NCBI GenBank assembly: GCA_937926875.1
Contig: CALBAX010000015.1
Span: forward strand, 2,412 to 66,411
From: an uncultured Desulfovibrio sp.
GTDB lineage: Bacteria > Desulfobacterota > Desulfovibrionia > Desulfovibrionales > Desulfovibrionaceae
DNA length: 64,000 nt
Direction: 5' to 3'
Part shown: positions 8,520-62,726 of the stretch, one piece after another
Numbering within the stretch: the stretch's first letter is position 1
How the letters are laid out: each line of letters starts with the position of its first letter
Notes under the pieces: generated by a model
The model's database searches: none
What the model was told of the DNA's origin: nothing
Seen by the model: only the letters and a program-made list of their open reading frames with translations
Program-made: the position numbers and the translations under genes

Positions 8520-8611
8520 GGCAAAAACAGGAAAAAAGCCCGCACGGGGCCTTTCCTGTATAAAAAACATCCTGGCCGCCGTCCAGACGACGGCCAGCGG
8601 GAGCAATATAT

Positions 8612-8685
8612 GGGGGAGGGAACCCCTTTTGCTTGCGGCAAAAAGGGGTTCCCTCCCCCATCCCCCCTCCTTCCCCAAAACCCGC
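8612..8685. repeat. GC-rich palindromic intergenic element, copy A (short form)
   Basis: Perfect 19-bp inverted repeat GGGGGAGGGAACCCCTTTT / AAAAGGGGTTCCCTCCCCC (8612-8630 and 8641-8659), 10-nt loop, then tail ATCCCCCCTCCTTCCCCAAAACCCGC. Confidence 0.7.
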
Positions 8686-8850
8686 ACATACAAATTCAAT
8701 AAAACCGGAATGTTCCGTGAAGGGCTGAATATTTCCCTGTATGGAGCTCTTCATCATGGGCATCTGCCATGGGCTCTCCCGGATAACGTGCGCTGGGGAA
8801 GAGGAGTTTGAGGGAAGGGGGCCCCTTCCCTCTACAAATATTTTATGACG

Positions 8851-9801
8851 CTAGAACGGCGTGCCGGTGGCCAGCATGTGTTCCAGCAGGGCGGCACGCA
8901 GCCAGCGGGCCACGGGGCCGGGACGGCCGGCGTCGGGGCCCTGGCCGATGGGGCGGCCCTCGAAGTGGCTGATGCCCACGCACAGGCTGGCGCTGGTGAA
9001 GAGCAGCATCTCGCGGGCAGTGAAGATCTCTTCGCGGCGGATGGGGCGCTCCACCACGGGCAGGCGCTGCGGTGCGATCCTGCGGGCCGCCAGCATGGAG
9101 GTGCCGGGCAGGATGCGGCGGCCTTCGGGACAGCACAGGCGGCCCTCGGCATCCACGATGCCCACATTGGCGATGGCGGCCTCGCCCAGATGGCCTTCCT
9201 CGTCAAAGGTCACAGCCACGTCCATGCCCCGCTGCCGGGCCTCGGCGGCCATGAAGACGTTGGGCAGATAGTTGGTGCTCTTGATGCGGGCCAGATATTC
9301 CTGCTTGGGCGGGATGGCGCTGGCAAAGGCCGTGAGGCCCTTCTCGTAAAAGGCTTCCGTGGGCAGTTCCTTGCGCAGGGCCACGATGTAGAGGCTGGAC
9401 CGCGGGCACTCCTCGGGCGAGACGCCGAAACCGCCGGGCCCGCGGCCCACCAGCACGCGGATGTCGCCATGATCGGTGCCCGAAGCGCGGGCCACGTCCA
9501 GGATGCGGGCGCGCAGCCCGTCCCACGAACAGGGCGGCAGCAGGGAAAGGGCGCGGCTGCCGTCGCGCAGGCGGGCCAGGTGTTCTTCAAGGGCAAAGAT
9601 GCGGCCCTCGCGGTAGCACAGGCTCTCGAACAGGGCATCGCCCCGGTGGCACATGTGGTCGTCCAGGGGCAGGAGCAGGCAGCGCGCGTCACGGCAGACG
9701 GCGTCCACACGCGCATCATAAAAGGCCAGGATCTTGTCGGCCCCGGGCCGGGGCGCAGCCATCAGGGCCGCCGTCCAGGCATCGGCATCCAGAATCTTCA
9801 T
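8851..9801 (-). CDS. class IV aminotransferase (aminodeoxychorismate lyase / branched-chain or D-amino-acid aminotransferase family)
   Basis: 317 aa from the internal ATG at 9801 (MKILDADAW...) with fold-type IV features. The upstream 58 codons of the track ORF are discarded. Confidence 0.7.
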   Translation of the reverse strand: MKILDADAWTAALMAAPRPGADKILAFYDARVDAVCRDARCLLLPLDDHMCHRGDALFESLCYREGRIFALEEHLARLRDGSRALSLLPPCSWDGLRARILDVARASGTDHGDIRVLVGRGPGGFGVSPEECPRSSLYIVALRKELPTEAFYEKGLTAFASAIPPKQEYLARIKSTNYLPNVFMAAEARQRGMDVAVTFDEEGHLGEAAIANVGIVDAEGRLCCPEGRRILPGTSMLAARRIAPQRLPVVERPIRREEIFTAREMLLFTSASLCVGISHFEGRPIGQGPDAGRPGPVARWLRAALLEHMLATGTPF

Positions 9802-9985
9802 GGCATCCCCGCGAAAGGCCGTCCCGCACGGGAGCGGCCTGTTGTGGTTGTGGATCGGGGCAGGGCCCCTGCCGGCGTCAGCCGCCGGTGAAACGTCTTT
9901 TTCTAGCACGAACGGCGGCGACGGGGAATACCTTGCCCTGCTGCCGGAGGACATGCCCGTGCCTTCGCGCCGCACGGCAAAAAGC

Positions 9986-10062
9986 AGGGGGAAGGACCTG
10001 CCCCGCCACGGCGGGAACGGGCCCCTCCCCCTTTGTTGCTGTCCGTATCCTGTCGCTGCGGG
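9986..10062. repeat. Possible degenerate copy of the GC-rich palindromic element family
   Basis: AGGGGGAAGGACC ... CCCCTCCCCC followed by TTGTTGCTGTCCGTATCCTGTCGCTGCGGG, which resembles the internal core of the long copies (GCTGTCCGT shared). Confidence 0.3.
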
Positions 10063-11109
10063 CTAGGACATGAAAACGTTCTTGTCGGGCACGCGCACCA
10101 GGTCGCGCTTGAGCAGTTCCTCGGCGATCTGCACGGCATTGAGGGCCGCGCCCTTGCGCACGTTGTCGGCCACGATCCAGAGGTTCAGGCCGTTCTCGAT
10201 GGTCTCGTCCTCGCGGATGCGGCCCACGTAGGTCTCGTCATCGCCCACGCAGTAGGCGGGCATGGGGTACATCTTTTCGCGCGGGTTGTCGAAGACGCGC
10301 ACGCCGGGGGCCTGCGAGAGCAGGATGCGGCATTCCTTGGCGGTCATCTTCTTGTGGGTCTCGATGTTCACGGATTCGGAATGGCAGTAGAACACGGGCA
10401 CGCGCACGCAGGTGGCAGTCACCTTGACCGTGGGATCGTTGAAGATCTTCACGGTCTCGTTGACCATCTTCATCTCTTCCTTGGTGTAGTCGTTCTCCAG
10501 GAAGACGTCGATGTGCGGCAGCACGTTGAAGGCGATGCGGTAAGGATAGACCTTGTTCTCGGGCTCGCGCATGTTGAACAGGTCGCGGGTCTGGCGTTCC
10601 AGTTCTTCCAGGCCCTTCTGGCCGGTACCGGACACGGCCTGGTAGGTGGAGACCACGATGCGCTTGATGCCCACGGCGTCATGGATGGGCTTGAGGGCCA
10701 CCAGCATCTGGATGGTGGAGCAGTTGGGGTTGGCGATGATGCCCTGATGCCCTTCCAGATGTTCGGGGTTCACTTCGGGGACCACCAGGGGGCAGCGGTC
10801 GTCCATGCGCCACTGGGAGGAGTTGTCCACCACCACACAGCCGGCATGGGCGGCATGGGGAGCGAATTTTTCGGAAGTGCTGCCGCCGGCGGAGAAGATG
10901 GCGATGTCGATACCTTCGAAGACATCTTCCTTCAGTTCCTGCACCACCAGCTCGTCATCGCCGAAAGGCACCTTGGTCCCGGCGGAACGGGCCGAGGCGA
11001 AGGCGCGCACTTCCGTGGCCGGGAACTGGCGAGCGTGCAGGGTTTTCAGCATTTCACGGCCCACGGCGCCCGTGGCGCCCACAACGGCAACAGTCAACTT
11101 CTTGCTCAT
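10063..11109 (-). CDS. asd: aspartate-semialdehyde dehydrogenase
   Basis: 348 aa, MSKKLTVAVVGATGAVG Rossmann N-terminus; conserved Asd core including the active-site Cys region (IIANPNCST). Confidence 0.95.
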   Translation of the reverse strand: MSKKLTVAVVGATGAVGREMLKTLHARQFPATEVRAFASARSAGTKVPFGDDELVVQELKEDVFEGIDIAIFSAGGSTSEKFAPHAAHAGCVVVDNSSQWRMDDRCPLVVPEVNPEHLEGHQGIIANPNCSTIQMLVALKPIHDAVGIKRIVVSTYQAVSGTGQKGLEELERQTRDLFNMREPENKVYPYRIAFNVLPHIDVFLENDYTKEEMKMVNETVKIFNDPTVKVTATCVRVPVFYCHSESVNIETHKKMTAKECRILLSQAPGVRVFDNPREKMYPMPAYCVGDDETYVGRIREDETIENGLNLWIVADNVRKGAALNAVQIAEELLKRDLVRVPDKNVFMS

Positions 11110-11683: not shown

Positions 11684-12493
11684 ATGACACAACCTAGCTC
11701 CTGCCTACTTACGGTGCTGGATCTGGTCCCCTTCGGCCAGACCGGCCAGGAAAGCCGCTTCTTCGCCCTGCGCCTCACCCGCCCCGACTGGCCGTCGTGG
11801 CGTCCCGGCCAGTTCGTGATGGTGCGGCCCACGTCGTTCGGTCTCGAGATGCCCTGGGCCCGTCCCTTCGGCATCTGCCACATGACCTCCCGCCACCTGA
11901 TCTGCTTCTTCCAGGTCGTGGGGCGCGGCACCCGTCGCATGGCCGAACTCAAGGCCGGTGACACCGTGCGCGTCTGGGGGCCTTTGGGCAACGGCTTCGC
12001 CATGGAGCCCGATACCCCCACCCTGCTGCTGGCCGGCGGCATGGGCATCGTGCCCTTCGTGGGCTATGTGAGCGAGCACCCCAAGCCGTGGAACGTGACC
12101 ATGCTCTTTGGCCATCGCGAGCCGCTGAGCTGCTACCCCGTGGACAGCATCAACGAGCATGTGCCCCTGGACAGCCTGCGCGAGACCGTGCCCGGCGACC
12201 TGGACAACTTCATCTTCACCATCCAGGAACGCATGCGCGAATACGCCGAGCAGAAGGGCCTGATCCTGGCCTGCGGCCCCCTGCCCTTCCTCAAGACCGT
12301 GCACGGCTTCGCCCGTGAGCTCAACGCCCGCGTGCAGCTCTCGCTGGAAAACCGCATGGCCTGCGGCGTGGGCGCCTGCCTGGGCTGCGTGACCCGCACC
12401 ACCGGGGAATGGCCCGTGGCCGACAAGCGCAACGGCCTTGTCCAGACCTGCAACCACGGCCCCGTGTTCTGGGCCAACCAGATCGAGCTCTAG
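11684..12493 (+). CDS. pyrK: dihydroorotate dehydrogenase electron-transfer subunit
   Basis: Internal ATG (MTQPSSCLLTVLDLVP) at 11684; FAD/NAD-binding ferredoxin-reductase fold; C-terminal CGVGACLGC 2Fe-2S motif. Confidence 0.9.
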   Translation: MTQPSSCLLTVLDLVPFGQTGQESRFFALRLTRPDWPSWRPGQFVMVRPTSFGLEMPWARPFGICHMTSRHLICFFQVVGRGTRRMAELKAGDTVRVWGPLGNGFAMEPDTPTLLLAGGMGIVPFVGYVSEHPKPWNVTMLFGHREPLSCYPVDSINEHVPLDSLRETVPGDLDNFIFTIQERMREYAEQKGLILACGPLPFLKTVHGFARELNARVQLSLENRMACGVGACLGCVTRTTGEWPVADKRNGLVQTCNHGPVFWANQIEL

Positions 12494-12506
12494 GCCGGGG
12501 GACAGC

Positions 12507-13448
12507 ATGAACCAGCACTCTATGGATCTTTCCGTCACCCTCAAGGGGCCCACGCAGAGCCTGCACCTCAAGAACCCGGTGCTCACGGCTTCCGGCACCT
12601 TCGGCTACGGCATGGAATTCGCCCCCTACGGCGACCTGACCAGCCTGGGCGGCATCATCGTCAAGGGCCTGTCCCTGCTGCCCCGCGACGGCAACCCCTG
12701 CCCGCGCATCGTGGAGACCACGGCCGGCATGCTCAATGCCGTGGGCCTGCAGAACGACGGCGTGGAAGCCTTCTGCAAGGAAAAGCTCCCCCGCCTGCCC
12801 TGGCAACAGCTGCCCGTCATCGCCAACCTTTACGCCACCTCCCCCGCCGAATTCGGCGAGCTGGCCGCCCGCCTCAATGAAGAGGAAGGCGTAGCCGCGC
12901 TGGAAGTGAACGTCTCCTGCCCCAACGTCAAGAGCGGCGGCATCCTCTTCGGGCAGGACCCCAAGCTGGCCGCGGCCGTCACCCGCGCCGCCCGTGACGC
13001 GGCACCCGACAAGCCGCTCATCATCAAGCTTTCGCCCAATGTCACGGACATCGCCCTCATGGCCCGCAGCGTGCAGGACGCCGGTGCGGACATGATCTCG
13101 TGCATCAACACCCTTTCGGGCATGGCCGTGGACGTGGCCCGGCGCACGCCCCGCCTGGCCAACGTCATCGGCGGCCTGTCCGGCCCGGCCATCAAGCCCG
13201 TGGCCCTGCGCTGCGTGTGGCAGGTCTGCAAGGCCGTGGACATCCCCGTCATCGGCCTGGGCGGCATCTGCTCCGCCGAAGACGTGCTGGAATTCATCCT
13301 GGTGGGCGCCCATGCCGTCCAGATCGGCACGGCCAACTTCATCAGCCCCGACCGCGCCTTCGAGATCGTCAAGGAACTGCCCGTCGTCTGCCACCAGCTG
13401 GGCGTGACCAGCCTGGACGAGCTGCGCGGCTCCCTGAAGACGGCCTAA
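12507..13448 (+). CDS. pyrD: dihydroorotate dehydrogenase (class 1B) catalytic subunit
   Basis: MNQHSMDLSVTLKG start at 12507. TIM-barrel DHOD motifs (NTLSGMAVD, GLGGI) are present. Confidence 0.9.
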   Translation: MNQHSMDLSVTLKGPTQSLHLKNPVLTASGTFGYGMEFAPYGDLTSLGGIIVKGLSLLPRDGNPCPRIVETTAGMLNAVGLQNDGVEAFCKEKLPRLPWQQLPVIANLYATSPAEFGELAARLNEEEGVAALEVNVSCPNVKSGGILFGQDPKLAAAVTRAARDAAPDKPLIIKLSPNVTDIALMARSVQDAGADMISCINTLSGMAVDVARRTPRLANVIGGLSGPAIKPVALRCVWQVCKAVDIPVIGLGGICSAEDVLEFILVGAHAVQIGTANFISPDRAFEIVKELPVVCHQLGVTSLDELRGSLKTA

Positions 13449-13622
13449 CGCACGTCCGCTCCTTTTCCCGTGCGGGAGGGTACCGTAAGGCGCTCTCCCG
13501 CGCGGTGTTTTTTGTCCGGGGCCCGCGCCGTGGCCCGGCCCCGCCTGCCGCGCCACGGCGCCTGCCGGGACGGCCCCGAAAAACCAACCGCAACAGGGCG
13601 GCAGCCCCTGCAAGTCTGCTCC

Positions 13623-14768
13623 ATGGAGGCCCGCGTGGCAGAACTGAGCATCATCCCCGTCAACACTGCGGAAGACCTGGACCGCTTCGTGGAACTGCCC
13701 TGGAGCATCTACACGCCGGATTCCCTCTGGGTGCCCAACCTGAAAAAACAGGATCGCGAGCTGCTCTCGCCCGGCGAGCACCCCTTCTGGAATACCGCCC
13801 GGCGCGAACTGTTCCTGGCCCTGCGCGACGGCCGCCCCGTGGGCCGCATCGCGGCCATCGTGGACGAAAAATACAACGCCTATGCCGGCGAACGCTGCGG
13901 GGCCTTCGGCTTTTTCGAATGCCGGGACGACCGCGAGGCCGCCCACGCCCTGTTGCAGGCCGCCCACGACTGGCTGCGCCGCCAGGGCATGGCCTTCATG
14001 CGCGGGCCCCTCAACCCGTCCACCAACTACACCTGCGCCATGCTGGTGGACGGCTTCGACGAGGCCCCCGCGCTCATGATGCCCTGGAACCCGCCCTACT
14101 ATCCCGCCCTGCTGGAATCCTGGCACATGCGCAAGGAGCAGGACCTGTTCGCCTACCTCATCGAGCGCGACAAGCTGCACGTGGAGGACTGGCTCAAGGA
14201 CGAGATCCGTCACCTCAAGGAACAGGAGCGCTTCACCTGCCGTGTCTCCTCCAAGGCCACCCTGGCCGAGGACATCCGCATCATGCTGGACCTCTACCGC
14301 ATCTCGTGGGCCGGCAACTGGGGCTTCGCGCCCCTTTCCGACGGCGAGGCCGATGTGCTGGTGAAGGAGCTCAAGGGCCTGCTCGATCCCGATTTCTTCG
14401 TCCTCTTCTTCCACGATGGCGAGCCCGCCGCGGGCATGGTGGCCCTGCCGGACTTCAATCCCCTGCTCAAACGCCTCAACGGCAAGCTGGGCCTCAGCGC
14501 CCTGTGGCACTACTGGCAGGCGCGCGGCGAGATGCGCGGCAAGTACCGCATGATGCTCTTCGGCATCCGTGAGGAGTTCCGCCTGCTGGGCCTGCCCCTG
14601 CTCCTGCTGGACTACATGCTGGAACAGGCCCGCCGCCATCCCGAGTTCTGCCAGGTGGAAGGCTCGTGGGTGCTGGAAGACAACATGGCCGTCAATGACC
14701 TCATCGAAGACTTTTCCGGGCGGATCACCAAACGTTACCGCCTGTACCGCAAGGAGATCGTGTCATGA
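13623..14768 (+). CDS. acyl-CoA N-acyltransferase (GNAT superfamily) protein, about 380 aa
   Basis: Internal ATG at 13623 (MEARVAELSIIPVN). Long GNAT-like fold. Its stop overlaps the start of the next gene (ATGA). Confidence 0.5.
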   Translation: MEARVAELSIIPVNTAEDLDRFVELPWSIYTPDSLWVPNLKKQDRELLSPGEHPFWNTARRELFLALRDGRPVGRIAAIVDEKYNAYAGERCGAFGFFECRDDREAAHALLQAAHDWLRRQGMAFMRGPLNPSTNYTCAMLVDGFDEAPALMMPWNPPYYPALLESWHMRKEQDLFAYLIERDKLHVEDWLKDEIRHLKEQERFTCRVSSKATLAEDIRIMLDLYRISWAGNWGFAPLSDGEADVLVKELKGLLDPDFFVLFFHDGEPAAGMVALPDFNPLLKRLNGKLGLSALWHYWQARGEMRGKYRMMLFGIREEFRLLGLPLLLLDYMLEQARRHPEFCQVEGSWVLEDNMAVNDLIEDFSGRITKRYRLYRKEIVS

Positions 14769-15817
14769 GCCATAGCGCCGATACTCCCCTGATCACGCCC
14801 GCGCCCTGGCTGGACGGCAAAAAGGTCGTCGTCACCGGCGGCACCGGCTTCGTGGGCCGCCACCTGCTGCCCCAGCTGGTGGCTGCCGGGGCCCGCGTCA
14901 CCTGCATCACCCGCGCCACGTCCCGCCGCGACCATCTGCCCGCCGGGGTGGAAGTTGTCCGCGCCGACCTGCGCAGCGGCGCCGGGCTGGAAGAAGCCCT
15001 GCGCGGCCAGGACATCTGCATCCACATGGCCGCCCTGCTCTTCGGGCTGGGCTGGCAGGACTATCTGCGCGCCAACAGCGAGGCCGCCCGCGCCCTGGCC
15101 ACGGCCTGGCAGCGCCTCGACGCGCAGGGCCAGGCCCCGCAGCGTCTGGTGCTGGTCTCCAGTCTGGCCGCCAGCGGCCCCTGCGACACTCCCGCCGGCA
15201 GGGGCGACGACGCGCCCGGCGCGCCCGTGTCCGCCTACGGCTGGTCCAAGCTCATGGTGGAACAGATCCTGGGCCGTGCCCTGGGCGATCGCATGGTCAC
15301 CCTGCGGCCGCCCATCATCTACGGCTCCGGCGACCGCGGCCTGCTGCCCGTGTTCCAGGGCCTGCGCTGGGGCGTGGCCGTCACGCCCGGCCTGTTCCGC
15401 CGCTTCCCGGTCTCGGCCGTGCATGGCCGCGACGTGGGCCGCGCCATCGTCTGCTGCTGCCGCCCCGAAGCGCACGGCGTCTACCACGTCAACGACGGCG
15501 GCTGCTACGCCATGGCCGACGTTTACCGCGCCATGGCCCGGGCCATGGGCAAAAAGGCCTGCATCCTGCGCCTGCCCCTCTGCTTCCTGGGCCTGACCGC
15601 GCTGCTGTCCACGCTGGGCGGCAGCCTGCTGGCCGCGCTGGGACGCAAGGGCCGCGCCCCCAACTGGAATCTGGACAAATACCGCGAAGCCCGCCAGTCC
15701 GGCTGGACCTGCGACGCGTCGCGCCTGCGCGAGGAACTCGGCTATGCCCCCGCCCTCACGCTCGACCAGGGCATGCAAGAAGCCGTGGAAGGCTACAGGC
15801 GCGAGGGCCTGCTGTGA
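14765..15817 (+). CDS. NAD-dependent epimerase/dehydratase (SDR family)
   Basis: VVVTGGTGFVGRHL Rossmann motif and a YxxxK-type region (SAYGWSK). Stop TGA overlaps the GTG start of the ABC-F gene. Confidence 0.75.
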   Translation: MSHSADTPLITPAPWLDGKKVVVTGGTGFVGRHLLPQLVAAGARVTCITRATSRRDHLPAGVEVVRADLRSGAGLEEALRGQDICIHMAALLFGLGWQDYLRANSEAARALATAWQRLDAQGQAPQRLVLVSSLAASGPCDTPAGRGDDAPGAPVSAYGWSKLMVEQILGRALGDRMVTLRPPIIYGSGDRGLLPVFQGLRWGVAVTPGLFRRFPVSAVHGRDVGRAIVCCCRPEAHGVYHVNDGGCYAMADVYRAMARAMGKKACILRLPLCFLGLTALLSTLGGSLLAALGRKGRAPNWNLDKYREARQSGWTCDASRLREELGYAPALTLDQGMQEAVEGYRREGLL

Positions 15818-17820
15818 AAATAACCATCCAGGAACTGTCCAAGTCCTTCGGCGGACGGGACATCTTCAACAATTTCTCGCTGGAAGTGGATTCCGGCGTG
15901 CGTTTGTGCGTCTGCGGCCCCAACGGGACCGGCAAGTCCACCCTCCTCCGCCTGCTGGCCGGCGTGGAGCCCGCCGACGGCGGCCGTGTCATCCTGCCCA
16001 GGGGCTGCCGCCTGGGCTTCGTGGAACAGGAGCTCTCCGAAGAGGCCCTGGACACGCCCCTGCTGACCTATGTGCTGGACGTGCTCCATGACTGGAACGA
16101 GTTCTGGGCCGAGTGGGAAGACGCCGCCCGGCAGAAGGACGAGGCGCGCCTGACCCAGCTCATGCACCGCCAGGCCGAACTGGAAGCCACCCACGGCTAC
16201 AATCCCGAACACCGCGCCAAGGCCGTGCTCTCCGGTCTGGGCTTTGCCGAAAGCAAGTGGCTGCGCACCCTGCGCGAGCTCTCCGGCGGCTGGCGCGAAC
16301 GCGCCAAACTGGCCCGCGTGCTCACCGCCGGGGCCGACGTGCTGCTGCTGGACGAACCCACCAACCATCTGGACATGGAAGCCGTGGAATGGCTGGAGTC
16401 CTTCCTCATGGACTTCAAGGGCGCCCTGGTCTTCGTGGCCCACGACCGCGTGTTCATGGACCGCGTGGGCACGCACGTGCTCTATCTGGGCCTGTCCCGC
16501 CCGGTCTTCCGCAAGGCCACCTACACCCAGTTCCTCTCCCTCCAGGAGGAATACAACGCCCAGCGTGAACGCGAGGCCAAGGCCCTGCAGGACGAGCTGG
16601 CCCGCAAGATGGCCTTCGTGGAACGCTTCCGCGCCAAGGCCACCAAGGCCCGTCAGGCCGGTTCGCGCCAGAAGATGGCCAAAAAGCTGGAAAAAGAGCT
16701 GGAAGATTACCGTCCCGAGCCCAAGCGCAAGGAACTGAACTTCACCTGGCCCGAAGCCCCGCACATGGAAAAGGTGGCCCTTGCCGCCGCCGATCTGGCC
16801 TTCCACTTCCCGGACGGCAAGCAGATGTGGCCGCCGCTGACCTTCACCCTTTACAACGGCCAGCGCGTGGCCCTGGTGGGGCACAACGGCTGCGGCAAGT
16901 CCACCCTGCTCAAGCTGCTGGCCGGGACCCTGGAACGCTGCGGCGGCAACGTGGTCACCGCGCCCCAGATGCGCCTGGGCTACTACACCCAGCACCAGAT
17001 GGACACCCTGCGCCCGGACACCACCGTGCTGGGCGAGATCCGGCGCCTGTCCGACCCCCGCACCACCGAAGAAGAGCTCATGAGCGTGCTGGGCCTCTTC
17101 CTGCTGGGGCAGGAATACTTCGACCGGCAGGTGAGCAAGCTCTCCGGCGGCGAGAAGAGCCGCCTGGTGCTGGCCAGCCTGTTCCTCAAACGCTGCAATT
17201 TCCTGCTGCTGGACGAACCCACCAACCATCTGGACCTCGAAAGCCGCGAGGCCCTGGGCACGGCCCTGCAGAAGTTCGACGGCACCCTGCTCATGGTGGC
17301 CCACGACCGCTGGCTGCTCTCGCAGGTAGGCGCCGAGGCCTGGGCCCTGGACGAGAAAGGCATCACCGTCTACCCCGACTTCGCCAGCTACGACACGGCC
17401 CGCCGCGCCGCCCTGGAGAGCGGCAGCGTCAGCCCCGGCCTCAACGCCTCCAACAAGGCCGAGAAGCCCGACAACGCGCCCCGCGCCAACCTCTCCCGCG
17501 AGGAGCAGAAGCGCCTCAAGCGCGAGCAGGCCGAACGCCGCAACGCCCTGCACAAGGAGCTCAAGCCCCTGCAGCAAAAATACGCCGCGCTGGAAGGCCA
17601 GCTGGGAAAGGCCATGGACGAGCAGTCCGACGTGGAGACCCAGCTTGCCGATCCGGCCGTCTATGCCGACGGTGCCCGCTCCACCGAGCTGCTCAAACGC
17701 TTCAACGAGCTGCGCGACCTGACCGAGCGCCTCATGGAAGACATGGCTGCCCTGGAAGAGCAGATCGCCGCCATCGAAGCCAGGCGCGCCGATATCGACA
17801 GCATGGGGGATCTGGCATGA
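15814..17820 (+). CDS. ABC-F family ATPase (two tandem ABC domains, no transmembrane domain)
   Basis: Two Walker A (GPNGTGKST, GHNGCGKST), two LSGG signatures and a C-terminal coiled-coil. GTG start at 15814 overlapping the epimerase stop. Confidence 0.85.
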   Translation: MKITIQELSKSFGGRDIFNNFSLEVDSGVRLCVCGPNGTGKSTLLRLLAGVEPADGGRVILPRGCRLGFVEQELSEEALDTPLLTYVLDVLHDWNEFWAEWEDAARQKDEARLTQLMHRQAELEATHGYNPEHRAKAVLSGLGFAESKWLRTLRELSGGWRERAKLARVLTAGADVLLLDEPTNHLDMEAVEWLESFLMDFKGALVFVAHDRVFMDRVGTHVLYLGLSRPVFRKATYTQFLSLQEEYNAQREREAKALQDELARKMAFVERFRAKATKARQAGSRQKMAKKLEKELEDYRPEPKRKELNFTWPEAPHMEKVALAAADLAFHFPDGKQMWPPLTFTLYNGQRVALVGHNGCGKSTLLKLLAGTLERCGGNVVTAPQMRLGYYTQHQMDTLRPDTTVLGEIRRLSDPRTTEEELMSVLGLFLLGQEYFDRQVSKLSGGEKSRLVLASLFLKRCNFLLLDEPTNHLDLESREALGTALQKFDGTLLMVAHDRWLLSQVGAEAWALDEKGITVYPDFASYDTARRAALESGSVSPGLNASNKAEKPDNAPRANLSREEQKRLKREQAERRNALHKELKPLQQKYAALEGQLGKAMDEQSDVETQLADPAVYADGARSTELLKRFNELRDLTERLMEDMAALEEQIAAIEARRADIDSMGDLA

Positions 17821-18218
17821 CCTCCATCGTCGTGGCCGGCGGCATCATCTGGCAGGACGACCACCTGCTGGCCGCCCTGCGCCCGCAAGGCAAGCCCATG
17901 GCCGGTTACTGGGAGTTCCCCGGCGGCAAGCTCGAACCCGGCGAGACCGCCGAACAGGCCCTTTGCCGCGAGCTGCGCGAGGAGCTGGGCATCAGCGTGC
18001 GCGCCTGCCGGCTCTGGCAGATCGTGGAGCATGATTATGCCGAGCGCGACCTGCACGTGCAGCTGCACTTCTTCCACGTCACCGCCTTCGACGGCACGCC
18101 CTGCGCCCGGGAACGTCAGGAGCTGCGCTGGGTCACGCCCTCCCAGGCTCGTGACCTGCCCTTCCTGCCCGCCGACGCCGATCTGGTGGCCGGCCTGCCC
18201 GCCTGCGCTCCGCGGTAG
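17817..18218 (+). CDS. Nudix hydrolase (MutT/8-oxo-dGTP diphosphatase-like)
   Basis: Nudix box GGKLEPGETAEQALCRELREELGI. ATG at 17817 overlaps the ABC-F stop (ATGA). Confidence 0.8.
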   Translation: MTSIVVAGGIIWQDDHLLAALRPQGKPMAGYWEFPGGKLEPGETAEQALCRELREELGISVRACRLWQIVEHDYAERDLHVQLHFFHVTAFDGTPCARERQELRWVTPSQARDLPFLPADADLVAGLPACAPR

Positions 18219-18234
18219 ATGCACATCGTTTTGT

Positions 18235-18314
18235 GGGGGAGGGGGACCCCTTTTCACTAGCGCGAAAAAAGGGGTCCCCCTCCCCCACGCCCCCACCCTT
18301 CCCCAAAACGCGCC
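18235..18314. repeat. GC-rich palindromic intergenic element, copy B (short form)
   Basis: Perfect 20-bp inverted repeat GGGGGAGGGGGACCCCTTTT / AAAAGGGGTCCCCCTCCCCC with 12-nt loop, then tail ACGCCCCCACCCTTCCCCAAAACGCGCC. Confidence 0.7.
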
Positions 18315-18320
18315 TTCACG

Positions 18321-18358
18321 GCCTGTGTCCCTGCGGGGACACAGGCTTTTTGTTTTTT
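18321..18358 (+). terminator. Rho-independent terminator of the pyrK...nudix operon
   Basis: GCCTGTGTCCC-tgc-GGGACACAGGC stem followed by TTTTTGTTTTTT. Confidence 0.8.
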
Positions 18359-18672
18359 GGGGGCCTTGTTTCCCCAATGTTCTAAAAAACATATTGCTTA
18401 CTATACTGCGGGTGCCCTCGATCCGCACAAGCAAAGGGACATCTGCCTCCATTGGGCAACCTTGGAGAGCTCCCAACGCCGCGCGCTCCAGCCTGCCCCG
18501 ATAGTTCCCGTCCTGTTCCGGGCCATTGCGTCCGGGCCGGACGGCGGCTAAGATGTCCCCTTGTCCCCAAAGCCTCGCCCGGCGCCAGCGCACGATGCCA
18601 TGCCCTGTGTCCGCCAGACGGGGACCTGCCATACCGGCCTGAAGAAAAGTTTTTGGAAGGGTTGGGGGGTCA

Positions 18673-18746
18673 GGGGGGAAGGGGGACCTTTTTGGAAAAA
18701 GGTCCCCCTTCCCCCCGCGCATCCCTCCCCGCCCTTCCTGCAAAGG
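18673..18746. repeat. GC-rich palindromic intergenic element, copy C (short form)
   Basis: Perfect 21-bp inverted repeat GGGGGGAAGGGGGACCTTTTT-GG-AAAAAGGTCCCCCTTCCCCCC, then tail GCGCATCCCTCCCCGCCCTTCCTGCAAAGG. It ends 8 nt before the pepP ATG. Confidence 0.7.
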
Positions 18747-18754
18747 AACCCCGC

Positions 18755-19834
18755 ATGAACACGCCCTATGCTGCCCGACGCGACCGCCTGCGCCAACTGA
18801 TGCGCGCCCGCGGTCTGGATGCCCTGCTGGTGAGCCACGCTGCCAACCGTTTTTACCTTTCCGGCTTCGAGCTGCATGACGTGCAGCTCAACGAGAGCGC
18901 GGGACGCCTGGTCATCTGCGCGGACGGGCGGGACTGGCTCTGCACGGACGCCCGCTACAAGGATGCGGCGGCCCGGCTCTGGGACGAGGACCACATCCTC
19001 ATCTACGGCCCGGATGCGGCCACGGAGATCGGCCGGCTCATGCGGCGTTGCGGCAGCCGCCTGGGTCTGGAGGCGGAGATCGTGAGCCTCAATTTTGCCC
19101 GTTCGCTGGGCCGTGCCGTAGGCCGCGGCGCACATCTGCAGGCGGCCGACGGCCTGGTGGAAGAGCTGCGCGTCATCAAGGACGCGGACGAGATCAAAGC
19201 CCTGGAGCGTTCCTTCGCCCTCAACCACGCCATGCTGCGCTGGCTGGAGGAGAGCCAGCTTCAGCCAGGCCGCAACGAAGCCGAGCTGGCCTGGGCCATC
19301 GAAAAATATTTCCGTGACAACGGCGCCTCGGAACTGGCCTTCCCGTCCATCGTGGCCGTGGACCGGAACGCGGCCCTGCCCCACGCCATCCCCGGTGAGA
19401 AGAAGCTGCCGGACAATGGTCTGGTGCTGGTGGACGTGGGCTGCCGCGTGGACGGGTACTGCTCCGACCAGACGCGCACCTTCTGGGTGGGCGACAGGCC
19501 GCACAAGGAGTTCCGCGAGACCATGAAGCTGGTGCGTGATGCCCAGCAGGCAGCCCTGGACAAGATGCGGCCGGGCCTGCCCCTGCACGAGGCCTATACG
19601 CTGGCGCGGGGCGTGTTCGCGAAGGCAGGCGTGGAAGCCTGGTTCACCCACGGCCTGGGCCACGGCGTGGGCCTGGAGACGCACGAGGCCCCCAGCCTGG
19701 GCCGCCGCGGCGACAAGGTCCTGCAGGAAGGCATGGTGGTCACGGTGGAGCCCGGCCTCTACTACCCGCAGTGGGGCGGCATCCGCTGGGAGTACACGGT
19801 GCTCATCACGGCCGACGGCAACCGCATCCTGTAG
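18755..19834 (+). CDS. pepP: Xaa-Pro aminopeptidase (M24 family)
   Basis: Internal ATG at 18755 (MNTPYAARRDRLRQLM). Creatinase N-terminal domain plus M24 metal-ligand region (HGLGHGVGLETHE). AAGGA RBS. Confidence 0.85.
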   Translation: MNTPYAARRDRLRQLMRARGLDALLVSHAANRFYLSGFELHDVQLNESAGRLVICADGRDWLCTDARYKDAAARLWDEDHILIYGPDAATEIGRLMRRCGSRLGLEAEIVSLNFARSLGRAVGRGAHLQAADGLVEELRVIKDADEIKALERSFALNHAMLRWLEESQLQPGRNEAELAWAIEKYFRDNGASELAFPSIVAVDRNAALPHAIPGEKKLPDNGLVLVDVGCRVDGYCSDQTRTFWVGDRPHKEFRETMKLVRDAQQAALDKMRPGLPLHEAYTLARGVFAKAGVEAWFTHGLGHGVGLETHEAPSLGRRGDKVLQEGMVVTVEPGLYYPQWGGIRWEYTVLITADGNRIL

Positions 19835-31752: not shown

Positions 31753-31797
31753 GCCTGCCCGGGAACGGTTCCGCACAACTCCGTTCCCCGGGCAGGC
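31753..31797 (+). terminator. GC-rich hairpin after ridA (possible terminator, no U-run)
   Basis: GCCTGCCCGGGAACGG-12 nt loop-CCGTTCCCCGGGCAGGC. Confidence 0.35.
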
Positions 31798-31902
31798 TCC
31801 ATCCCCCTCCCCCGGGCGGACACGGGGGGCAGCATGGACTTTGGCCCTGTTTTGGCTTATCAAGATACTCTTCAATCTTCGTAACCCAATGCAGGATATA
31901 CC

Positions 31903-33730: not shown

Positions 33731-33762
33731 AAAAAGGCCACCCCGCAGGGTGGCCTTTTTTC
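33731..33762. terminator. Bidirectional rho-independent terminator between convergent lepA and the membrane-protein gene
   Basis: AAAAAGGCCACCC-cgca-GGGTGGCCTTTTTT. Confidence 0.75.
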
Positions 33763-38200: not shown

Positions 38201-38773
38201 TCCTGCCGTGACAGCCTGGCCCGCATGAAGCTCGACGAGCAGTTCCCGCAGCTGGAACAGAAGGACGTGAGCCAGATCGTCCTGCCCCTGCTCCAGCACG
38301 AGAGCATGGAAGCCCCGGTGGCCCCCGGCACCAGCGTGCTCTACCACGCGGCCTGCCACTGCGAATGGGCGGGCGTGCCCACCCTCAAGGGACAGGCCCA
38401 GCTCACCGGCGCCCTGGAACAGCTCTGCAAGGTCAAGGTCAGCACCATCCCCGGCTGCTGCGGCGAATCCGGCATGGGCGCCGTGACCTCCCCCACCATC
38501 TACAACCTGTTGCGCGCCCGCAAAAAGGAACGCCTGGCCCAGGCTTTCGAGCCCCAGCCCCAGACCGGCGCCTGCTACGCCGGGCCCATCCTGGTGGGCT
38601 GCCCGTCCTGCAAGATCGGCATCGCCCGCTGCCTCATCCAGCTCAAGGAAAAGCACCCCGTGCTGCATGTGCTGGAATGGCTGGCCAACCAGGTGGACGG
38701 AGAGGACCGCCGCCAGCGCTTCCGCCGCCGGGCCAACGAGACCCGCGGCGACGTGCGCATCGTCCAGAGCTAA
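35207..38773 (+). CDS. YdiJ-like multidomain FAD-linked oxidase / Fe-S oxidoreductase (DUF3683-FAD_binding_4-4Fe4S-CCG domains)
   Basis: 1188 aa. FAD-binding PCMH domain (ALIPRGGGSGMTGGAVP), FAD-oxidase C-terminal domain, two ferredoxin-like CxxCxxC(x)3CP motifs and two cysteine-rich CCG motifs (CCG...C and GCCGESG). Confidence 0.8.
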   Translation: MAHKGPHISISPDYVVNRILRINIDDFAEWPESVRHLAIAIAEELFLVAYNPFINVETVRNSVHARFERESMALAHYFANAIGEGITMFWSAYEAERSFREELISALRNILPGECILSSPSALVASATDATDLRMELPLLVVEPDSAEQVAALVKLANDMKFALIPRGGGSGMTGGAVPARKRTVIVSLTRLTKIGPIDLEDMTVTVEAGAITQNVIKAVDAAGALFSVDPASKQASSIGGNVSENAGGPSAFEYGTTLDNLLWWRMVTPTGEIISVERENHPRHKILPEETAVFVVKDISGGVRNVIHLRGDEIRLPGLGKDVTNKALGGLPGMQKEGVDGIITEACFIIHPKPRFKRVMVLEFFGRSMHPAAVVVRELVGLRNRIRQEGDYAHLSALEEFNAKYVQAIDYKRKSQKYEGLPISVIILQVDGDDPYLLDKCVNDIVCVVEEQDNVDIIVAQDDKEGERFWEDRHRLSAIAKRTSGFKLNEDVVIPMDRIPDFALFLEQLNLECTAQAYRYALQEVGRLPGFPMEDKEFNREFSFASKVASGDNPQAELSDTELWKRAEAFLAGMGQKYAHLDKKISKIRDYMEASRIVVASHMHAGDGNCHVNIPVNSNDAHMLEEAEETAARVMAECQEMGGEVSGEHGIGITKISFLGKSKMDALRAFKERVDPRDVMNPAKLVHRELPVRPFTFSFNRLINDIHASGLPDKEKLISLLSTVQVCTRCGKCKQVCSMCYPERSMQYHPRNKNMVLGMLLEAVYYSQVNKGTIDDNLLRWLRDLVEHCTACGRCLANCPVKIPSGEVALTLRSLLEHENAGGHPIKKRALEWLVQDVSSRVPKAAKMASLGQKVQNKLLGMVPSMWKQRMQSPIFAGSGPKMGYTNLYESLRLHRGSVFAPREVTPGMPCVLYFPGCGGSLFYDRIGLAAIMLLLHTGHAVAVPPRHLCCGYPLLAAGMDTEYEDNMAQNRQYLASMLRNLVKQGFDVRYLATACGSCRDSLARMKLDEQFPQLEQKDVSQIVLPLLQHESMEAPVAPGTSVLYHAACHCEWAGVPTLKGQAQLTGALEQLCKVKVSTIPGCCGESGMGAVTSPTIYNLLRARKKERLAQAFEPQPQTGACYAGPILVGCPSCKIGIARCLIQLKEKHPVLHVLEWLANQVDGEDRRQRFRRRANETRGDVRIVQS

Positions 38774-38793: not shown

Positions 38794-38924
38794 GAGAGGG
38801 GAAGGGGACGTTATCGCTGCTGTCGCTGTCCGTCGCTTCCTCCATGGCGCCGGACACGGCCCTGCGGGCCACCTCCGGCGGCGTCCCCCTCCTCTCCCAT
38901 GCTCCCCCATCCTTCGAAAAACGC
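38794..38924. repeat. GC-rich palindromic intergenic element, copy F (long form with internal core)
   Basis: Arms GAGAGGGGAAGGGGACG ... CGTCCCCCTCCTCTC enclosing a 70-nt core homologous to copy E (shared CACGGCCCTGCGGGCC and GCTGTCGCTGTCCGTCGCTTCCT). Tail CCATGCTCCCCCATCCTTCGAAAAACGC. Confidence 0.65.
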
Positions 38925-39002: not shown

Positions 39003-39506
39003 ATGGAAAGAAAGGAAGTCACCCGCATGCTGGTGGGTGTCCGGCCCCAGGGGCAGGGCACCATCCGCGTCGTGGGCGCCAAGCTGCACGGCATCGTGGT
39101 CACGGAATCCAAACTCAACTACCACGGCTCCATCACCATCGACACCGACATCCTCGAAGCAGCCAGCCTGCTGCCGCTGGAATACGTCTACATCTGGAAC
39201 AAGCACAGCGGCTCCCGCATCGAGACCTATGTGCTGCCCGGCCCGCGCGGCAGCGGCGTGGTCTGCCTCAACGGCGCCGCGGCCCGTACCTGCCAGGTGG
39301 GCGACGAGATCATCGTGGCCTCTTCCCGCGAGATCCCCGTCAGCGACTATCACGAGGGCTTCTCCTGCCGCGTGCTGACCTTCGACCAGAACGGCGGGCT
39401 GCCCAACCGCGTGGCCGAAAAGCTGGAATACCGCGTGGCCGCCAAGGACGACGGCACGGAATTCGTCATCATGGACATGGGCACCGGTCAGGAATGGATC
39501 GGCTAG
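39003..39506 (+). CDS. panD: aspartate 1-decarboxylase proenzyme
   Basis: [21 protein letters not shown] (Gly-Ser self-cleavage site) and VCLNGAAAR motifs. The start is uncertain: ATG at 39003 or 39027, both with an AGGA-type RBS. Confidence 0.85.
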
Positions 39507-39523
39507 ACAGGCTGTTTTGACAT

Positions 39524-39612
39524 GAAAGGGAAGGGAGCTTGACCGCCGCTGCCGCTCCTGTGGCTTCCGGCGGGAAAACCTCCCCTTCCCCCTCATGCTC
39601 CCCCATCCTGCA
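39524..39612. repeat. GC-rich palindromic intergenic element, copy G (intermediate form)
   Basis: Arms GAAAGGGAAGGGAG ... CTCCCCTTCCCCCTC with a shortened core (GCTGCCGCTCCTGTGGCTTCC). Tail ATGCTCCCCCATCCTGCAAACGGCGCGC is nearly identical to the tail of copy F. Confidence 0.6.
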
Positions 39613-40204
39613 AACGGCGCGCACAAGGGACCTGGCGTTTCCTCTGCGCCGCCCCGCTGATGGCCACCGCCCCCCCATGACGGCAGGACACCGCGGACAC
39701 GGCCAGCCTCCCCTTCGTGCCTTCCCCATCTGCCCCGCTCCCCACAGCACAGGAGCCCACCGGGCATTGCCCCGCTCTTTTCCCACCGGGCCCGCTCCCC
39801 CGCAGCACCGGGGGACCATCCGGACGCGCGCAGTCTGCCGTGCCACATCACCTGCCCATCCTTCTGCAAAAAGCGCGTTGGGGGAGGATGGGGGCTCGGG
39901 GGGAAGGTGGGCCCCCTGTGCGCCAGCCAAGGGTCCCTTCTTCCCCCGAAACCATCCATGTCTGCCCTCCTGTCCGCACTTGCGAAAGCAGCAACGGATT
40001 TTTATACTTGCATGTTGGCCGGGCGACCGCATGGCATGCCGCCATGTCCCGCGGCCCGGGGCCGAAAACGCCCGTCACGGCGCGAGAGCGCGCGTTCCTC
40101 CCCTGTTCCGGCAGGAGCCATGCACGCGGGGAAACGCTGTCCACGCGCCTGTCCGGGCCCGTTTTTCACTATCTCACCGCTCCAGCCGAGCAGCAGAGGA
40201 AGTT

Positions 40205-42401: not shown

Positions 42402-42436
42402 AAAAAGCCCGTCCCCTGCGGGGGACGGGCTTTTTG
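42402..42436. terminator. Bidirectional rho-independent terminator (AAAAAGCCCGTCCCC-tgc-GGGGGACGGGCTTTTT) downstream of apbE
   Basis: 12-bp stem with flanking A-run and T-run, 20 nt past the apbE stop. Confidence 0.75.
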
Positions 42437-57154: not shown

Positions 57155-58141
57155 ATGAACGATATTTTTTCCCCTGATACGCTGCATTCCCTGGCCCTGC
57201 TCTGGAAAGGCCTGCTCTGGCCCCTGCTGCGTCTGCTGCTGGGCCTGTGCGCGGGCCTGCTGCTGGCCAATCTGCTGGAGGCCCTGCGCTGGACGCGCCA
57301 TCTGGCCCGCCTGGCCACCCCGCTGGCCCGGGCCGCCCATCTGCGCGACGTGGCGGGCGCGGCCTTCTCCCTGGCCTTCGTCTCCCCGGCCGCGGCCAAC
57401 GGCCTGCTTTCCGAAAGCCACCAAAAAGGCGAGATCGACGGCCGGGAACTCATGCTGGCCAATCTGTTCAACAGCTTCCCGGCCTATCTGGTCCACACGC
57501 CCACCATTTTCCTGCTCACCTGGCCCGTGCTGGGCTGGCCCGCCGTGGTCTATGTGGGCCTGACCCTGCTGGCCGCCGTGGGCCGTACCGGCCTGACCAT
57601 CGCCTTTTCCCGCCGCCTGCTGCCCGCACCGCCGCAGGGCTGCCTGGCCTGCACGGCCGCGACTGACGGCGAGACCGGCTGGCGCGCCGCCGCCCGCAAG
57701 GCCTGGAAGCGCTTCCGCCGCCGCGTGCCCAAGCTGGTCTGCTTCACGGTGCCCGTCTACATCATCATGTATCTGTTGCAGCGCTACGGCCTGTTCACCG
57801 CCGCCGAGGAGTGGCTGGCCATGCACATGGAATGGCTGGCCTTCCTCAAGCCCCAGGCCATGGGCATCATCGTGCTGCACCTGGCCGCCGAACTGGGCGC
57901 GGCCCTGGGCGCCGCGGGCAGCGTACTCCAGACCGGCGGCCTTGAAGCCCGCGACGTGGTGCTGGCCCTGATGGTGGGCAACATATTGTCCACGCCCATG
58001 CGGGCCATCCGCCACCAGCTGCCCGCCTACGCCGGTTTCTACCGCCCGGCCCTGGCCCTGCGCCTGATCCTGGCCAACCAGGGCCTGCGCGCCGTCAGTA
58101 TGGCCGTGGTCACCCTGCTGTACTGGTGGGTGGCGTTTTAG
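57155..58141 (+). CDS. membrane protein with nucleoside-recognition (Gate) domain (SpmA/SpmB-like)
   Basis: 328 aa, multiple transmembrane helices, two Gate-like repeats. Confidence 0.55.
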   Translation: MNDIFSPDTLHSLALLWKGLLWPLLRLLLGLCAGLLLANLLEALRWTRHLARLATPLARAAHLRDVAGAAFSLAFVSPAAANGLLSESHQKGEIDGRELMLANLFNSFPAYLVHTPTIFLLTWPVLGWPAVVYVGLTLLAAVGRTGLTIAFSRRLLPAPPQGCLACTAATDGETGWRAAARKAWKRFRRRVPKLVCFTVPVYIIMYLLQRYGLFTAAEEWLAMHMEWLAFLKPQAMGIIVLHLAAELGAALGAAGSVLQTGGLEARDVVLALMVGNILSTPMRAIRHQLPAYAGFYRPALALRLILANQGLRAVSMAVVTLLYWWVAF

Positions 58142-58150
58142 TAAGGAACA

Positions 58151-58233
58151 GGCGAGGGGGAGAAGGAAACCGTTTGGAAAAACGGTTCTCCCTCTCGCCC
58201 TCGCGCTCCCCCTTTCCCTTCCCAAAACTTTTA
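58151..58233. repeat. GC-rich palindromic intergenic element, copy D (degenerate short form)
   Basis: Imperfect inverted repeat GGCGAGGGGGAGAAGGAAACCGTTT-GGAAA-AACGGTTCTCCCTCTCGCC, then tail CTCGCGCTCCCCCTTTCCCTTCCCAAAACTTTT (shares CCCTTCCCAAAAC with copies A and B). Confidence 0.6.
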
Positions 58234-58328
58234 ACAGGGGACAGCGCGGCAAGGAGCAGGTAGTGTCCCGCCACTCCTTGCTCTCCCCGGCAACCGCGCT
58301 GCCTGACTTCAAGCATAAGGAAACGACC

Positions 58329-62668: not shown

Positions 62669-62726
62669 TTTCATAACAGGACATCCCTCCAGCTCATGGG
62701 AGGGCATATCCCTGTCAAAACCAAAC

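Follow-up and report, generated by a model that had tools for sequence, protein, structure and literature searches.

An apparently undescribed, lineage-wide family of palindromic intergenic repeats in the Desulfovibrionaceae

The NUDIX and M24 peptidase locus

Two members of the repeat family considered here, copies B and C, lie between a NUDIX gene and an M24 peptidase gene (18755-19834) in the window, by which we mean the whole 64-kb stretch of DNA that was analysed. Copy B begins 14 nt past the NUDIX stop codon (18216-18218). Its arms (GTGGGGGAGGGGGACCCCTTTT / AAAAGGGGTCCCCCTCCCCCAC) form a perfect 22-bp inverted repeat, a C-rich tail follows directly 3' of the stem (Table 1), and its predicted RNA fold has an energy of -50.4 kcal/mol (z -5.8). 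Directly downstream of the repeat, and outside it, is a canonical intrinsic terminator, and a terminator scan of the plus strand reported the hairpin of this terminator and not copy B. The terminator is kept almost unchanged in the sister lineage L179. Since there is a separate terminator downstream of it, copy B is placed inside the 3' UTR.

In copy C the imperfect palindrome is longer and has C-rich or G-rich sequence to either side, and its hairpin stops 38 nt short of the M24 peptidase ATG at 18755. A protein identical to this M24 peptidase is encoded on human-gut metagenome contigs, whose gene calls fit the window. The clusters next in similarity, at about 70% identity, bear the label uncultured Desulfovibrio, which assigns the window to an uncultured Desulfovibrionaceae species of the human gut. 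In species at about 70% protein identity we found no comparable orthologous B and C sites, synteny being broken upstream of the M24 gene.

Copies in the window

The window holds nine secure copies and two or three borderline ones, in agreement with the family of at least eight GC-rich palindromic elements that had been proposed from the letters of the DNA. Copies A, B, C, D, G, H, J and K were recovered with E-values from 2e-18 to 4e-3 by R1, a covariance model that, like an accompanying profile, was made from the copies of other genomes only, and copy F was recovered by a long-form profile. When checked against gene calls, every copy in the window is intergenic, again as predicted. The long G-run/C-run inverted repeats of the original prediction are also present, with perfect arms in A, B and C; chance alone, given the base composition, would supply about 4e-6 perfect hairpins of at least 21 bp in 64 kb. 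The C-rich tail is indeed conserved: the motif CCCTTCCCCAAAAC has five matches at no more than two mismatches, compared with 0.7 expected, a number reached in 0 of 100 shuffles, and ATGCTCCCCCATCCT occurs exactly at 38899 and 39595, in the tails of copies F and G. A direct-repeat finder run over the whole window returned chance coding matches only, and a tRNA/tmRNA scan found none.

Table 1. Repeat copies, borderline sequences and neighbouring terminators in the window. Scores are in bits, with E-values where available; distances are from the stop codon of the gene named.
Feature	Form	Position	Strand	Arms or hairpin	Loop or B module	Tail or flank	Score	Neighbourhood
Copy A	short	8607-8694	+	8610-8630 / 8641-8661 (perfect, 21 bp)	loop GCTTGCGGCA	8662-8685	67.5 bits	inverted relative to surrounding minus-strand genes; convergent with copy D
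Copy D		8777-8836	-	short hairpin 8810-8832		8809 down to 8777, AAACTCCTCTTCCCCAGCGC	31.4 bits, E 7.6e-7	18 nt past class IV aminotransferase gene (minus strand, stop 8851-8853), co-oriented
Family-like G-run/C-run arms (borderline)		9986-10032	-	GGGGGAGGGGCC ... GGTCCTTCCCCC		without tail	13.5-14 bits, E 0.04-0.05 (model extent 9981-10074)	about 30 nt past asd on the minus strand; T-run directly after
Copy B	short	18231-18322	+	18233-18254 / 18267-18288 (perfect, 22 bp)	12-nt loop CACTAGCGCGAA	18289-18313, ACGCCCCCACCCTTCCCCAAAACGCGCC	74.3 bits, E 1.6e-18 (R1)	see text
Canonical intrinsic terminator		18320-18358	+	12-bp stem (18320-18347)		T-run		directly downstream of copy B
Copy C	short, two-tailed	18637-18747	-	18673-18693 / 18696-18716 (perfect, 21 bp)		canonical tail reads on minus strand, 18637-18672 (AAAAGTTTTTGGAAGGGTTGGGGGG on plus); second C-rich flank 18717-18747	72 bits minus (18637-18719), 54.6 bits plus	see text
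Possible degenerate copy (borderline)		31756-31828	+	hairpin		C-rich flank TCCATCCCCCTCCCCC	14.9 bits, E 0.023	
Copy F	long	38794-38924	+	5' arm 38794-38810, 3' arm 38882-38896	B module 38811-38881, degenerate	38897-38924	E 2e-6 (long-form profile)	begins 20 nt past a gene of ~1190 aa (stop 38771-38773)
Copy G	long	39522-39629	+	5' arm 39524-39537, 3' arm 39579-39594	B module truncated	39595-39622	17.7 bits, E 0.004	begins 17 nt past a panD-like gene (stop 39504-39506)
Copy J	short	39862-39951	-	hairpin ~39899-39950		plus strand 39862-39898 is the G-rich complement of the tail	56.6 bits	convergent with copy G
Copy K	short	58151-58240	+	hairpin ~58151-58204 (RNA fold)		remaining tail to 58240, ends AAAACTTTTAA	41.7 bits, E 1e-9 (R1 match 58153-58240)	outermost arm repeat begins 9 nt past a stop codon (58139-58141); AACAGG on either side
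Copy H	long	62531-62676	+	5' arm 62531-62548, 3' arm 62631-62649	B module ~62549-62620, loop GCTAGCGCG	62650-62676	131 bits (long-form profile); R1 match 62628-62679, +, 20.1 bits	begins 30 nt past a 78-aa gene (62264-62500)
Canonical terminator		62723-62770						downstream of copy H
Degenerate B-module-like sequence (borderline)		62806-62891	-				E 0.005 and 9e-4	inverted, downstream of copy H

Anatomy and folding of the unit

The basic unit is about 85-90 nt long and combines a G-run/C-run hairpin of 19-25 bp with a C-rich, G-poor tail of about 30 nt. The 5' arm is G-rich (GGGGRAGGGRRMCC...) and the 3' arm C-rich, and the stem is often preceded by a T-rich leader, in which T makes up about 45-50% of positions -8 to -3. 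With the side of the tail setting the orientation, the loop of the gut subfamily is almost always GCYNGCGCG, with two clear exceptions, and the loops of copies A and B are versions of it. We considered and rejected a widespread flip-flop of the loop, as tail-oriented loops nearly always have this one sequence and inversion must therefore be occasional.

The tail consensus is CCAAGCCCCCCATCCCTTCCCCAGCGCGCTTTTA in gut Desulfovibrio and NNNCCCCCNCCCTTCCCCAAAAACTTTTAA in Solidesulfovibrio; the four tails that were counted contain 46-62% C and 4-12% G. On the strand opposite the tail and 3' arm there are five G-tracts, as read from 18267-18309. The original prediction had noted the lack of a consistent U-run, which is correct for the position next to the stem, but the tail itself characteristically ends in GCGC(GC)TTTT or, as in copy K, in AAAACTTTTAA.

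Long forms differ from short ones by a B module of about 75 nt (GCTCTGCTGTCGATGCCCGTAAGGCTCCTGCGTCGCCTAACGGGCACGGCCCTGCGGGCCGCCTTTCGGTCGC) between the 5' arm and the loop, predicted to fold into two small covarying hairpins. A unit may have no B module (short form), one (long form) or two in tandem. In the window the long forms are F, G and H, the first two of them degenerate. RNA folds were predicted for six window copies: those of B, A, C and K reach -43 to -50 kcal/mol with z-scores from -3.5 to -6.4, and the signal relative to shuffles is weaker for copy J (z -1.4) and for the long-form copy H (z -2.7). The tail is unpaired in the predicted folds.

Orientation and position relative to genes

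All copies had been predicted to share one orientation, with their tails on the plus-strand right side whatever the direction of the neighbouring genes. Neither half of this claim survived. Judged by the tail side, copies A, B, F, G, H and K read on the plus strand and D and J on the minus strand, while C scores better as a minus-strand copy. Six copies (B, D, F, G, H and K) each lie 9-30 nt past a stop codon and are co-oriented with the gene that ends there. The other three (A, C and J) are inverted partners of these stop-adjacent copies, with the tails of each pair facing each other, and the degenerate sequence inverted downstream of copy H follows that copy in the same manner.

The same relationship is found in other genomes. 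In 118 loci, 128 copies could be oriented with confidence, and the gene 3' ends no more than 150 nt away fall on the hairpin side in 56 cases and on the tail side in 10 (p = 7e-9), whereas gene 5' ends near copies show no such side bias (13 vs 11). Gene ends were called with a GC3-based caller that was checked on the window against public gene calls. The distance from stop codon to element is mostly 2-35 nt. Neighbouring pairs in which both orientations are clear (n=21) comprise 12 convergent, 3 divergent and 6 tandem arrangements, the excess of convergent over divergent pairs having p = 0.035, and their spacing is 37-670 nt. Orientation, then, tracks the upstream gene: a copy turns its hairpin side towards the stop codon of a gene that reads in its own direction.

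Two settings are seen: copies lie past a stop codon and ahead of a terminator, or they separate genes that have no terminator we could recognise between them. Given their location between stop codons and real terminators, they are presumably transcribed. The orientation bias could reflect selection on the transcript, in which the sense tail is C-rich and its antisense rich in G-tracts, or it could reflect directional insertion.

Distribution among genomes

The family extends well beyond the window, as the prediction had anticipated. A degenerate two-arm pattern matched at least 118 stretches when contigs of one genome per species were scanned, and among the matches listed nearly all are from Desulfovibrionaceae, namely Desulfovibrio, Mailhella, Bilophila, Solidesulfovibrio, Desulfolutivibrio and Nitratidesulfovibrio. 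An nhmmer model found 172 copies in the loci retrieved from many genomes. Carriers with a complete genome include Solidesulfovibrio sp. DCME (NZ_CP188261.1), Nitratidesulfovibrio sp. HK-II (NZ_AP036014.1) and D. caledoniensis (CP195092.1), as well as Bilophila wadsworthia and D. piger. Many of the pattern matches are located at contig ends. Some bins labelled Firmicutes, with 57-65% GC, have genuine family tails. Matches to the pattern in Streptomyces and Sphingomonas were set aside, as the tail is absent from them and they look like chance.

Neither a collection of viral contigs scanned with the hairpin pattern nor a plasmid collection searched with copy B contained a match, so that these scans give no sign of a vector. 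At gathering scores the whole window has no match in Rfam, and below threshold the only matches around copies B and C are to generic hairpins resembling miRNA precursors. In the literature on Desulfovibrio intergenic repeats we found no paper describing the family. A paper on "intractable" hairpin gaps in the finishing of a Desulfovibrio genome is tangential only. The family is thus lineage-wide and, as far as Rfam and the papers searched go, apparently undescribed.

Stem conservation and concerted evolution

In 42 copies from other genomes, 14 of the 21 stem pairs show compensatory double changes. Cells are paired in 96.9% of cases, compared with 83.7% after shuffling, and there are 137 double-change cells compared with 43; the observed values were reached in 0 of 500 shuffles. 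When the partner column is shifted by one, pairing falls to about 80%. The seed pattern imposed no complementarity, and the strongest covariation is in pairs outside the pattern. The inner hairpins of the long form covary as well. Among stem mismatches, G.T (20) and A.C (16) are equally common, and on this basis constraint at the RNA level is not distinguished from constraint at the DNA level.

Some copies are kept at orthologous sites across Solidesulfovibrio species. Between orthologous Solidesulfovibrio copies the differences are paired changes, and each copy resembles the paralogues beside it in the genome it comes from. Copy B in L179 has arms that differ at several positions and are still largely complementary, while its flanks are well conserved. 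The copies behave like a concerted multigene family.

Turnover between strains

Close strains could be compared among 50 gut-metagenome loci, which were obtained by scanning for relatives of the large gene that precedes copy F. Copy J is present in five assemblies (L136, L139, L140, L144 and L151), where the site reads ...ccttctGAAA[83 nt tail + hairpin]GAAAccagcc..., and is cleanly missing from four others (L135, L138, L141 and L146), in which a single GAAA remains at the junction ...ccttctGAAAccagcc... The assemblies with and without J diverge by 0.2-0.6% over 2.7 kb of flank. Copy J is also present in the outgroups, the window among them, which makes the event a precise loss of exactly one unit.

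Other changes involve parts of the unit. At the F site, strains have either a short or a long allele, the two differing by one B module between TT and TT. The loop at F is inverted between lineages (CCAGCGG vs CCGCTGG), and the loop at C is GG in the window and CC in L179-L181; these inverted states are consistent across several independent assemblies per lineage. A block of about 330 nt containing copy G is wholly absent from L147 and L174, and other related strains have the full long form there. Close strains thus differ at the DNA level by the gain or loss of whole units and of B modules and by the inversion of loops.

The presence and absence of the whole of copy J in near-identical strains agrees with the part of the original prediction that regarded the repeat as mobile, but the classical features of a MITE are lacking in this genome. 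A general target-site duplication in particular finds no support, as the flanking direct repeats of 43 copies are no longer than those of permuted pairs. Individual copies do have flanking repeats, such as GAAA at J and AACAGG at K. The one clean polymorphism is a loss and not a gain, and the 4-nt GAAA flanking J may represent no more than microhomology.

Ends of the unit and the search for a mobilising enzyme

A tblastn search of 1.23 Mb of retrieved DNA with approximate IS608 TnpA and E. coli RayT queries found no RAYT/IS200-like genes. Open reading frames between paired copies, inspected by eye, have no recognisable transposase-like product and look non-coding or like unrelated genes. The core ends (GGGG... 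/ ...GCGCTTT) are not inverted repeats of each other. An alignment of 42 sequences has no column corresponding to a GTAG tetranucleotide at the foot of the stem; the foot is GGGGRAGGG, following the T-rich leader. The family thus lacks the GTAG head of a REP/REPIN and the terminal repeats of a classical MITE. Together with the variable spacing of its pairs, the negative RAYT search of 1.23 Mb and the irregular flanking repeats of 43 copies, this leads us to place it outside both.

Several gut Desulfovibrio MAGs contain a related element of 234 bp in which the core is embedded, with an inverted repeat of 17 bp at its termini (TAGGGCCTGTTAACAC ... GTGTTAACAGGCCCTAG). On the left, the element runs into the gene before it and shares that gene's TAG/TAA stop codon, and its junctions are CTAG/TA-like. 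The 17-bp terminal repeat is absent from the window even at three mismatches, and a full-length profile of the element matches the window copies only over positions ~27-144, which is the core. The 234-bp element looks like a composite that captured a core, not an ancestor of the window copies.

Interpretation and alternatives

We consider it probable that the hairpins are lineage-wide, non-autonomous, modular palindromic repeats of the Desulfovibrionaceae, of the general kind represented by REP/BIME elements or by pneumococcal BOX. Units would be spread and removed by a DNA-level process that depends on the hairpin, candidates being enzymatic single-strand transposition, or gene conversion together with palindrome-stimulated slippage. 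Once placed, copies would be transcribed within 3' UTRs or intercistronic RNA, and the very stable stem (-42 to -50 kcal/mol) in the transcript would be expected to block 3'-to-5' exonucleases, as REPs do. The orientation bias would then stem from selection on the transcript, in which a sense copy presents its C-rich tail and an antisense copy a run of five G-tracts.

The tie to gene ends might instead mean that the units are cis-acting 3'-UTR modules selected by the host, serving as portable Rho-loading (rut-like) sites or as transcript-end stabilisers in the sense orientation only. This reading, which is compatible with mobility, is possible although we would not expect it to be the correct one. 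It accounts well for the hairpin side facing stop codons in sense (56 vs 10), for a tail that is C-rich, G-poor and predicted to be unpaired, for orthologous retention with compensatory changes across Solidesulfovibrio species, and for conservation of the sequence across genera. However, good intrinsic terminators stand within 10-50 nt downstream of B and H, making termination redundant there, about one third of the window copies (A, C and J) have the other orientation, J was lost without visible compensation, and the stem mismatches show no asymmetry between G.U-compatible and A.C types. Typical rut sites are, moreover, longer than 30 nt, and the 30-nt tail falls below that length. A bolder proposal, and a rather unlikely one in our estimation, is that of a directional element, seamlessly mobilised by a hairpin-dependent single-strand enzyme without kinship to known RAYTs. 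Such an element might be inserted by a mechanism that reads gene ends, for example one linked to the termination of transcription or translation, or to T-rich tracts lying one way round; or it might be a portable sense-strand RNA module that sets mRNA 3' ends, in which case the hairpin and a C-rich loading platform would be used genome-wide by the Desulfovibrionaceae.

The remaining explanations fare worse. The window copies would be decayed internal fragments of a transposase-mobilised MITE if the 234-bp element with its 17-bp terminal inverted repeats were ancestral. That the core is embedded in this element in several MAGs, with the left end over an upstream stop codon, and that the leaders of G and H, read from the sequence, weakly resemble that left end, would fit. 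The idea is nonetheless improbable, as the window lacks the terminal repeat and aligns with the core of the element alone, Solidesulfovibrio and Bilophila carry the core without these ends, and the unit lost at J is exactly the core. A binding or structural site acting at the DNA level, whether for a nucleoid protein, for gyrase (as reported for BIMEs), or as a cruciform or G-quadruplex, would agree with the symmetric mismatch spectrum, with loop inversions that imply a DNA hairpin or cruciform in vivo, and with the five G-tracts opposite the tail and 3' arm; but DNA structure alone can hardly explain the strong tie to the direction in which the neighbouring gene reads, the repeat has no known protein partner, and we think this very improbable. 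Least credible, and largely refuted, is the notion of ordinary intrinsic terminators that look alike through GC-rich composition. The copies are stable hairpins downstream of genes, and one family-like hairpin (9986-10032) has a T-run directly abutting it and so may act as a terminator. Against this, 25-35 nt of C-rich tail separate the stem from any T-run, the stems are 19-25 bp, conservation across genera extends beyond shape to loop, tail and sequence, some copies precede gene starts or form inverted pairs, and B and H have canonical terminators of their own downstream. The initial view that these are not simple terminators but a dispersed REP/MITE-like family was sound on this point.

Implications

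The Desulfovibrionaceae include abundant sulfide producers of the gut (Desulfovibrio, Bilophila) as well as model sulfate reducers, and we found no intergenic repeat family described in them. Model R1 aids annotation by flagging false open reading frames and false start codons that read through the repeats. Long open reading frames do read through copies, so that the spurious protein annotation envisaged in the original prediction is plausible, but two over-long M24 database proteins that were checked are C-terminal frameshifts and give no evidence of it. Contig breaks and homopolymer errors in assembled metagenomes also find an explanation in the family, and unit loss, long and short alleles and loop inversions offer strain-level markers. 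If the tie to stop codons and gene direction is functional, it would suggest that mRNA 3' ends are commonly shaped in this manner in the lineage. Clean loss, together with loop inversions, makes the family a natural system for hairpin-driven genome instability.

Comparison with known systems

CRISPR, integron attC sites and retrons were considered and rejected, the copies being scattered between housekeeping genes, where there are no arrays, no cassettes and no reverse transcriptase. As a lead, the ends of IS200/IS605-type single-strand transposons, with their subterminal hairpins, are similar to the units described here in being asymmetric and hairpin-marked, with neither terminal inverted repeats nor regular target duplication, and the seamless excision expected of IS200/IS605 has a counterpart in the precise loss of J. 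IS200/IS605 elements have a hairpin at each end, however, whereas the unit here has one large hairpin and no established conserved cleavage tetranucleotide, and no TnpA/RAYT was found in the 1.23 Mb searched.

Enterobacterial REP/BIME elements and Pseudomonas REPINs are likewise high-copy extragenic palindromes located in 3' UTRs or intercistronic regions, upstream of real terminators, with frequent inverted pairs, compensatory stem changes and an expected protection of upstream mRNA. The present family differs from REP and REPIN in having no GTAG head, a longer stem (19-25 bp) of G-runs and C-runs, an asymmetric 30-nt C-rich tail inside the unit, and an orientation tied to the upstream gene. 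In place of the fixed doublet of REPINs there is a pair spacing that varies from 37 to 670 nt, and the search of 1.23 Mb turned up no RAYT.

The Correia (NEMIS) elements of Neisseria and the ERIC/IRU elements of enterobacteria are also small intergenic repeats with long hairpins and indel polymorphism between strains. Correia and ERIC elements are transcribed into mRNA, and their effect can depend on orientation. Both have terminal inverted repeats, and Correia also has a TA duplication, whereas the core described here has neither and has a one-sided tail.

In the BOX elements of Streptococcus pneumoniae (boxA-boxB(n)-boxC), as in this family, zero, one or two internal modules stand between constant ends. 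Both are intergenic and non-autonomous, with a predicted stable multi-hairpin structure. The two belong to different phyla and have no sequence relationship, so that the likeness is one of design only, and unlike in BOX, the constant ends here are the two arms of one long hairpin that carries the module in its loop.

Terminators and flanking repeats in the window

Bidirectional-type canonical terminators, with an A-run before the stem and a T-run after it, are common in the window, so this genome is not short of ordinary terminators. Downstream of asd lies a hairpin whose G-run/C-run arms are like those of the repeat family; it directly precedes TGCTTTTTG and has no C-rich tail. This hairpin may be a family copy that has been co-opted as a true terminator. 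At copy K, a short form of the repeat, the hexamer AACAGG is found on either side. The pair could be a target duplication or could have arisen by chance, the latter being possible because such repeats show no general enrichment.

The region of copies B and C

A gene block that runs from dihydroorotate dehydrogenase through epimerase, and that in the window is extended by the ABC-F and NUDIX genes, has the opposite orientation with respect to the M24 peptidase gene from that seen in relatives at about 68% protein identity (L127 and L128). One of the inversion breakpoints lies within the intergenic region bearing B and C. The spacer between these copies shares essentially no homology with sister lineage L179, even though its flanks on both sides are well conserved (the terminator on one side and about 250 nt before C on the other), and it looks like a replaced segment. 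Copies B and C are also the exact sites of metagenome contig ends or of runs of G/C miscalls, and their hairpins are a cause of assembly breaks and sequencing errors.

Repeats in other genomes

A second intergenic repeat, GAGCATTTTC(C/A)GTTTGAAACGC ... GCGTTTCAAAC, unrelated to the hairpin family, occurs in the same gut Desulfovibrio MAGs as the 234-bp MITE described below and is found repeatedly beside hairpin-family copies; the intergenic regions of these MAGs are mosaics of several repeat families. Genuine tailed copies are present on contigs of 56-65% GC in bins labelled Firmicutes, which represent either mis-binned Desulfovibrionaceae DNA or a broader host range.

Coordinates and loci of the features discussed (L numbers denote loci or contigs from other genomes)
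Feature	Location	Remarks
Canonical terminators	150-178, 33731-33760, 42402-42435, 62723-62760	A-run, stem, T-run
Hairpin after asd	9986-10032	minus strand
Inverted block	11684-18218	
B-C spacer	18375-18520	
AACAGG at copy K	58142-58153, 58234-58239	
Contig ends or miscall runs at B, C	L002:1-60, L002:480-560, L005:400-427, starts of L180-L184	
Second repeat	L115, L110, L064, L102, L082, L055, L035	flanks of hairpin-family copies
Tailed copies, Firmicutes-labelled bins	L021, L024, L099, L103, L104	Christensenellaceae
	L074, L109	Clostridia
	L089, L105	Eubacteriales
234-bp MITE	L091:99-330, L095:3321-3550, L101, L048, L023, L020, L115	gut Desulfovibrio MAGs

In other gut Desulfovibrio MAGs the hairpin-plus-tail core is enclosed by a 234-bp MITE, absent from the window, whose terminal inverted repeats are 17 bp long (TAGGGCCTGTTAACAC ... 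GTGTTAACAGGCCCTAG). At the left, this MITE overlaps the TAG or TAA stop codon of varied upstream genes, and its junctions resemble CTAG/TA targets, which recalls IS630-type insertion.
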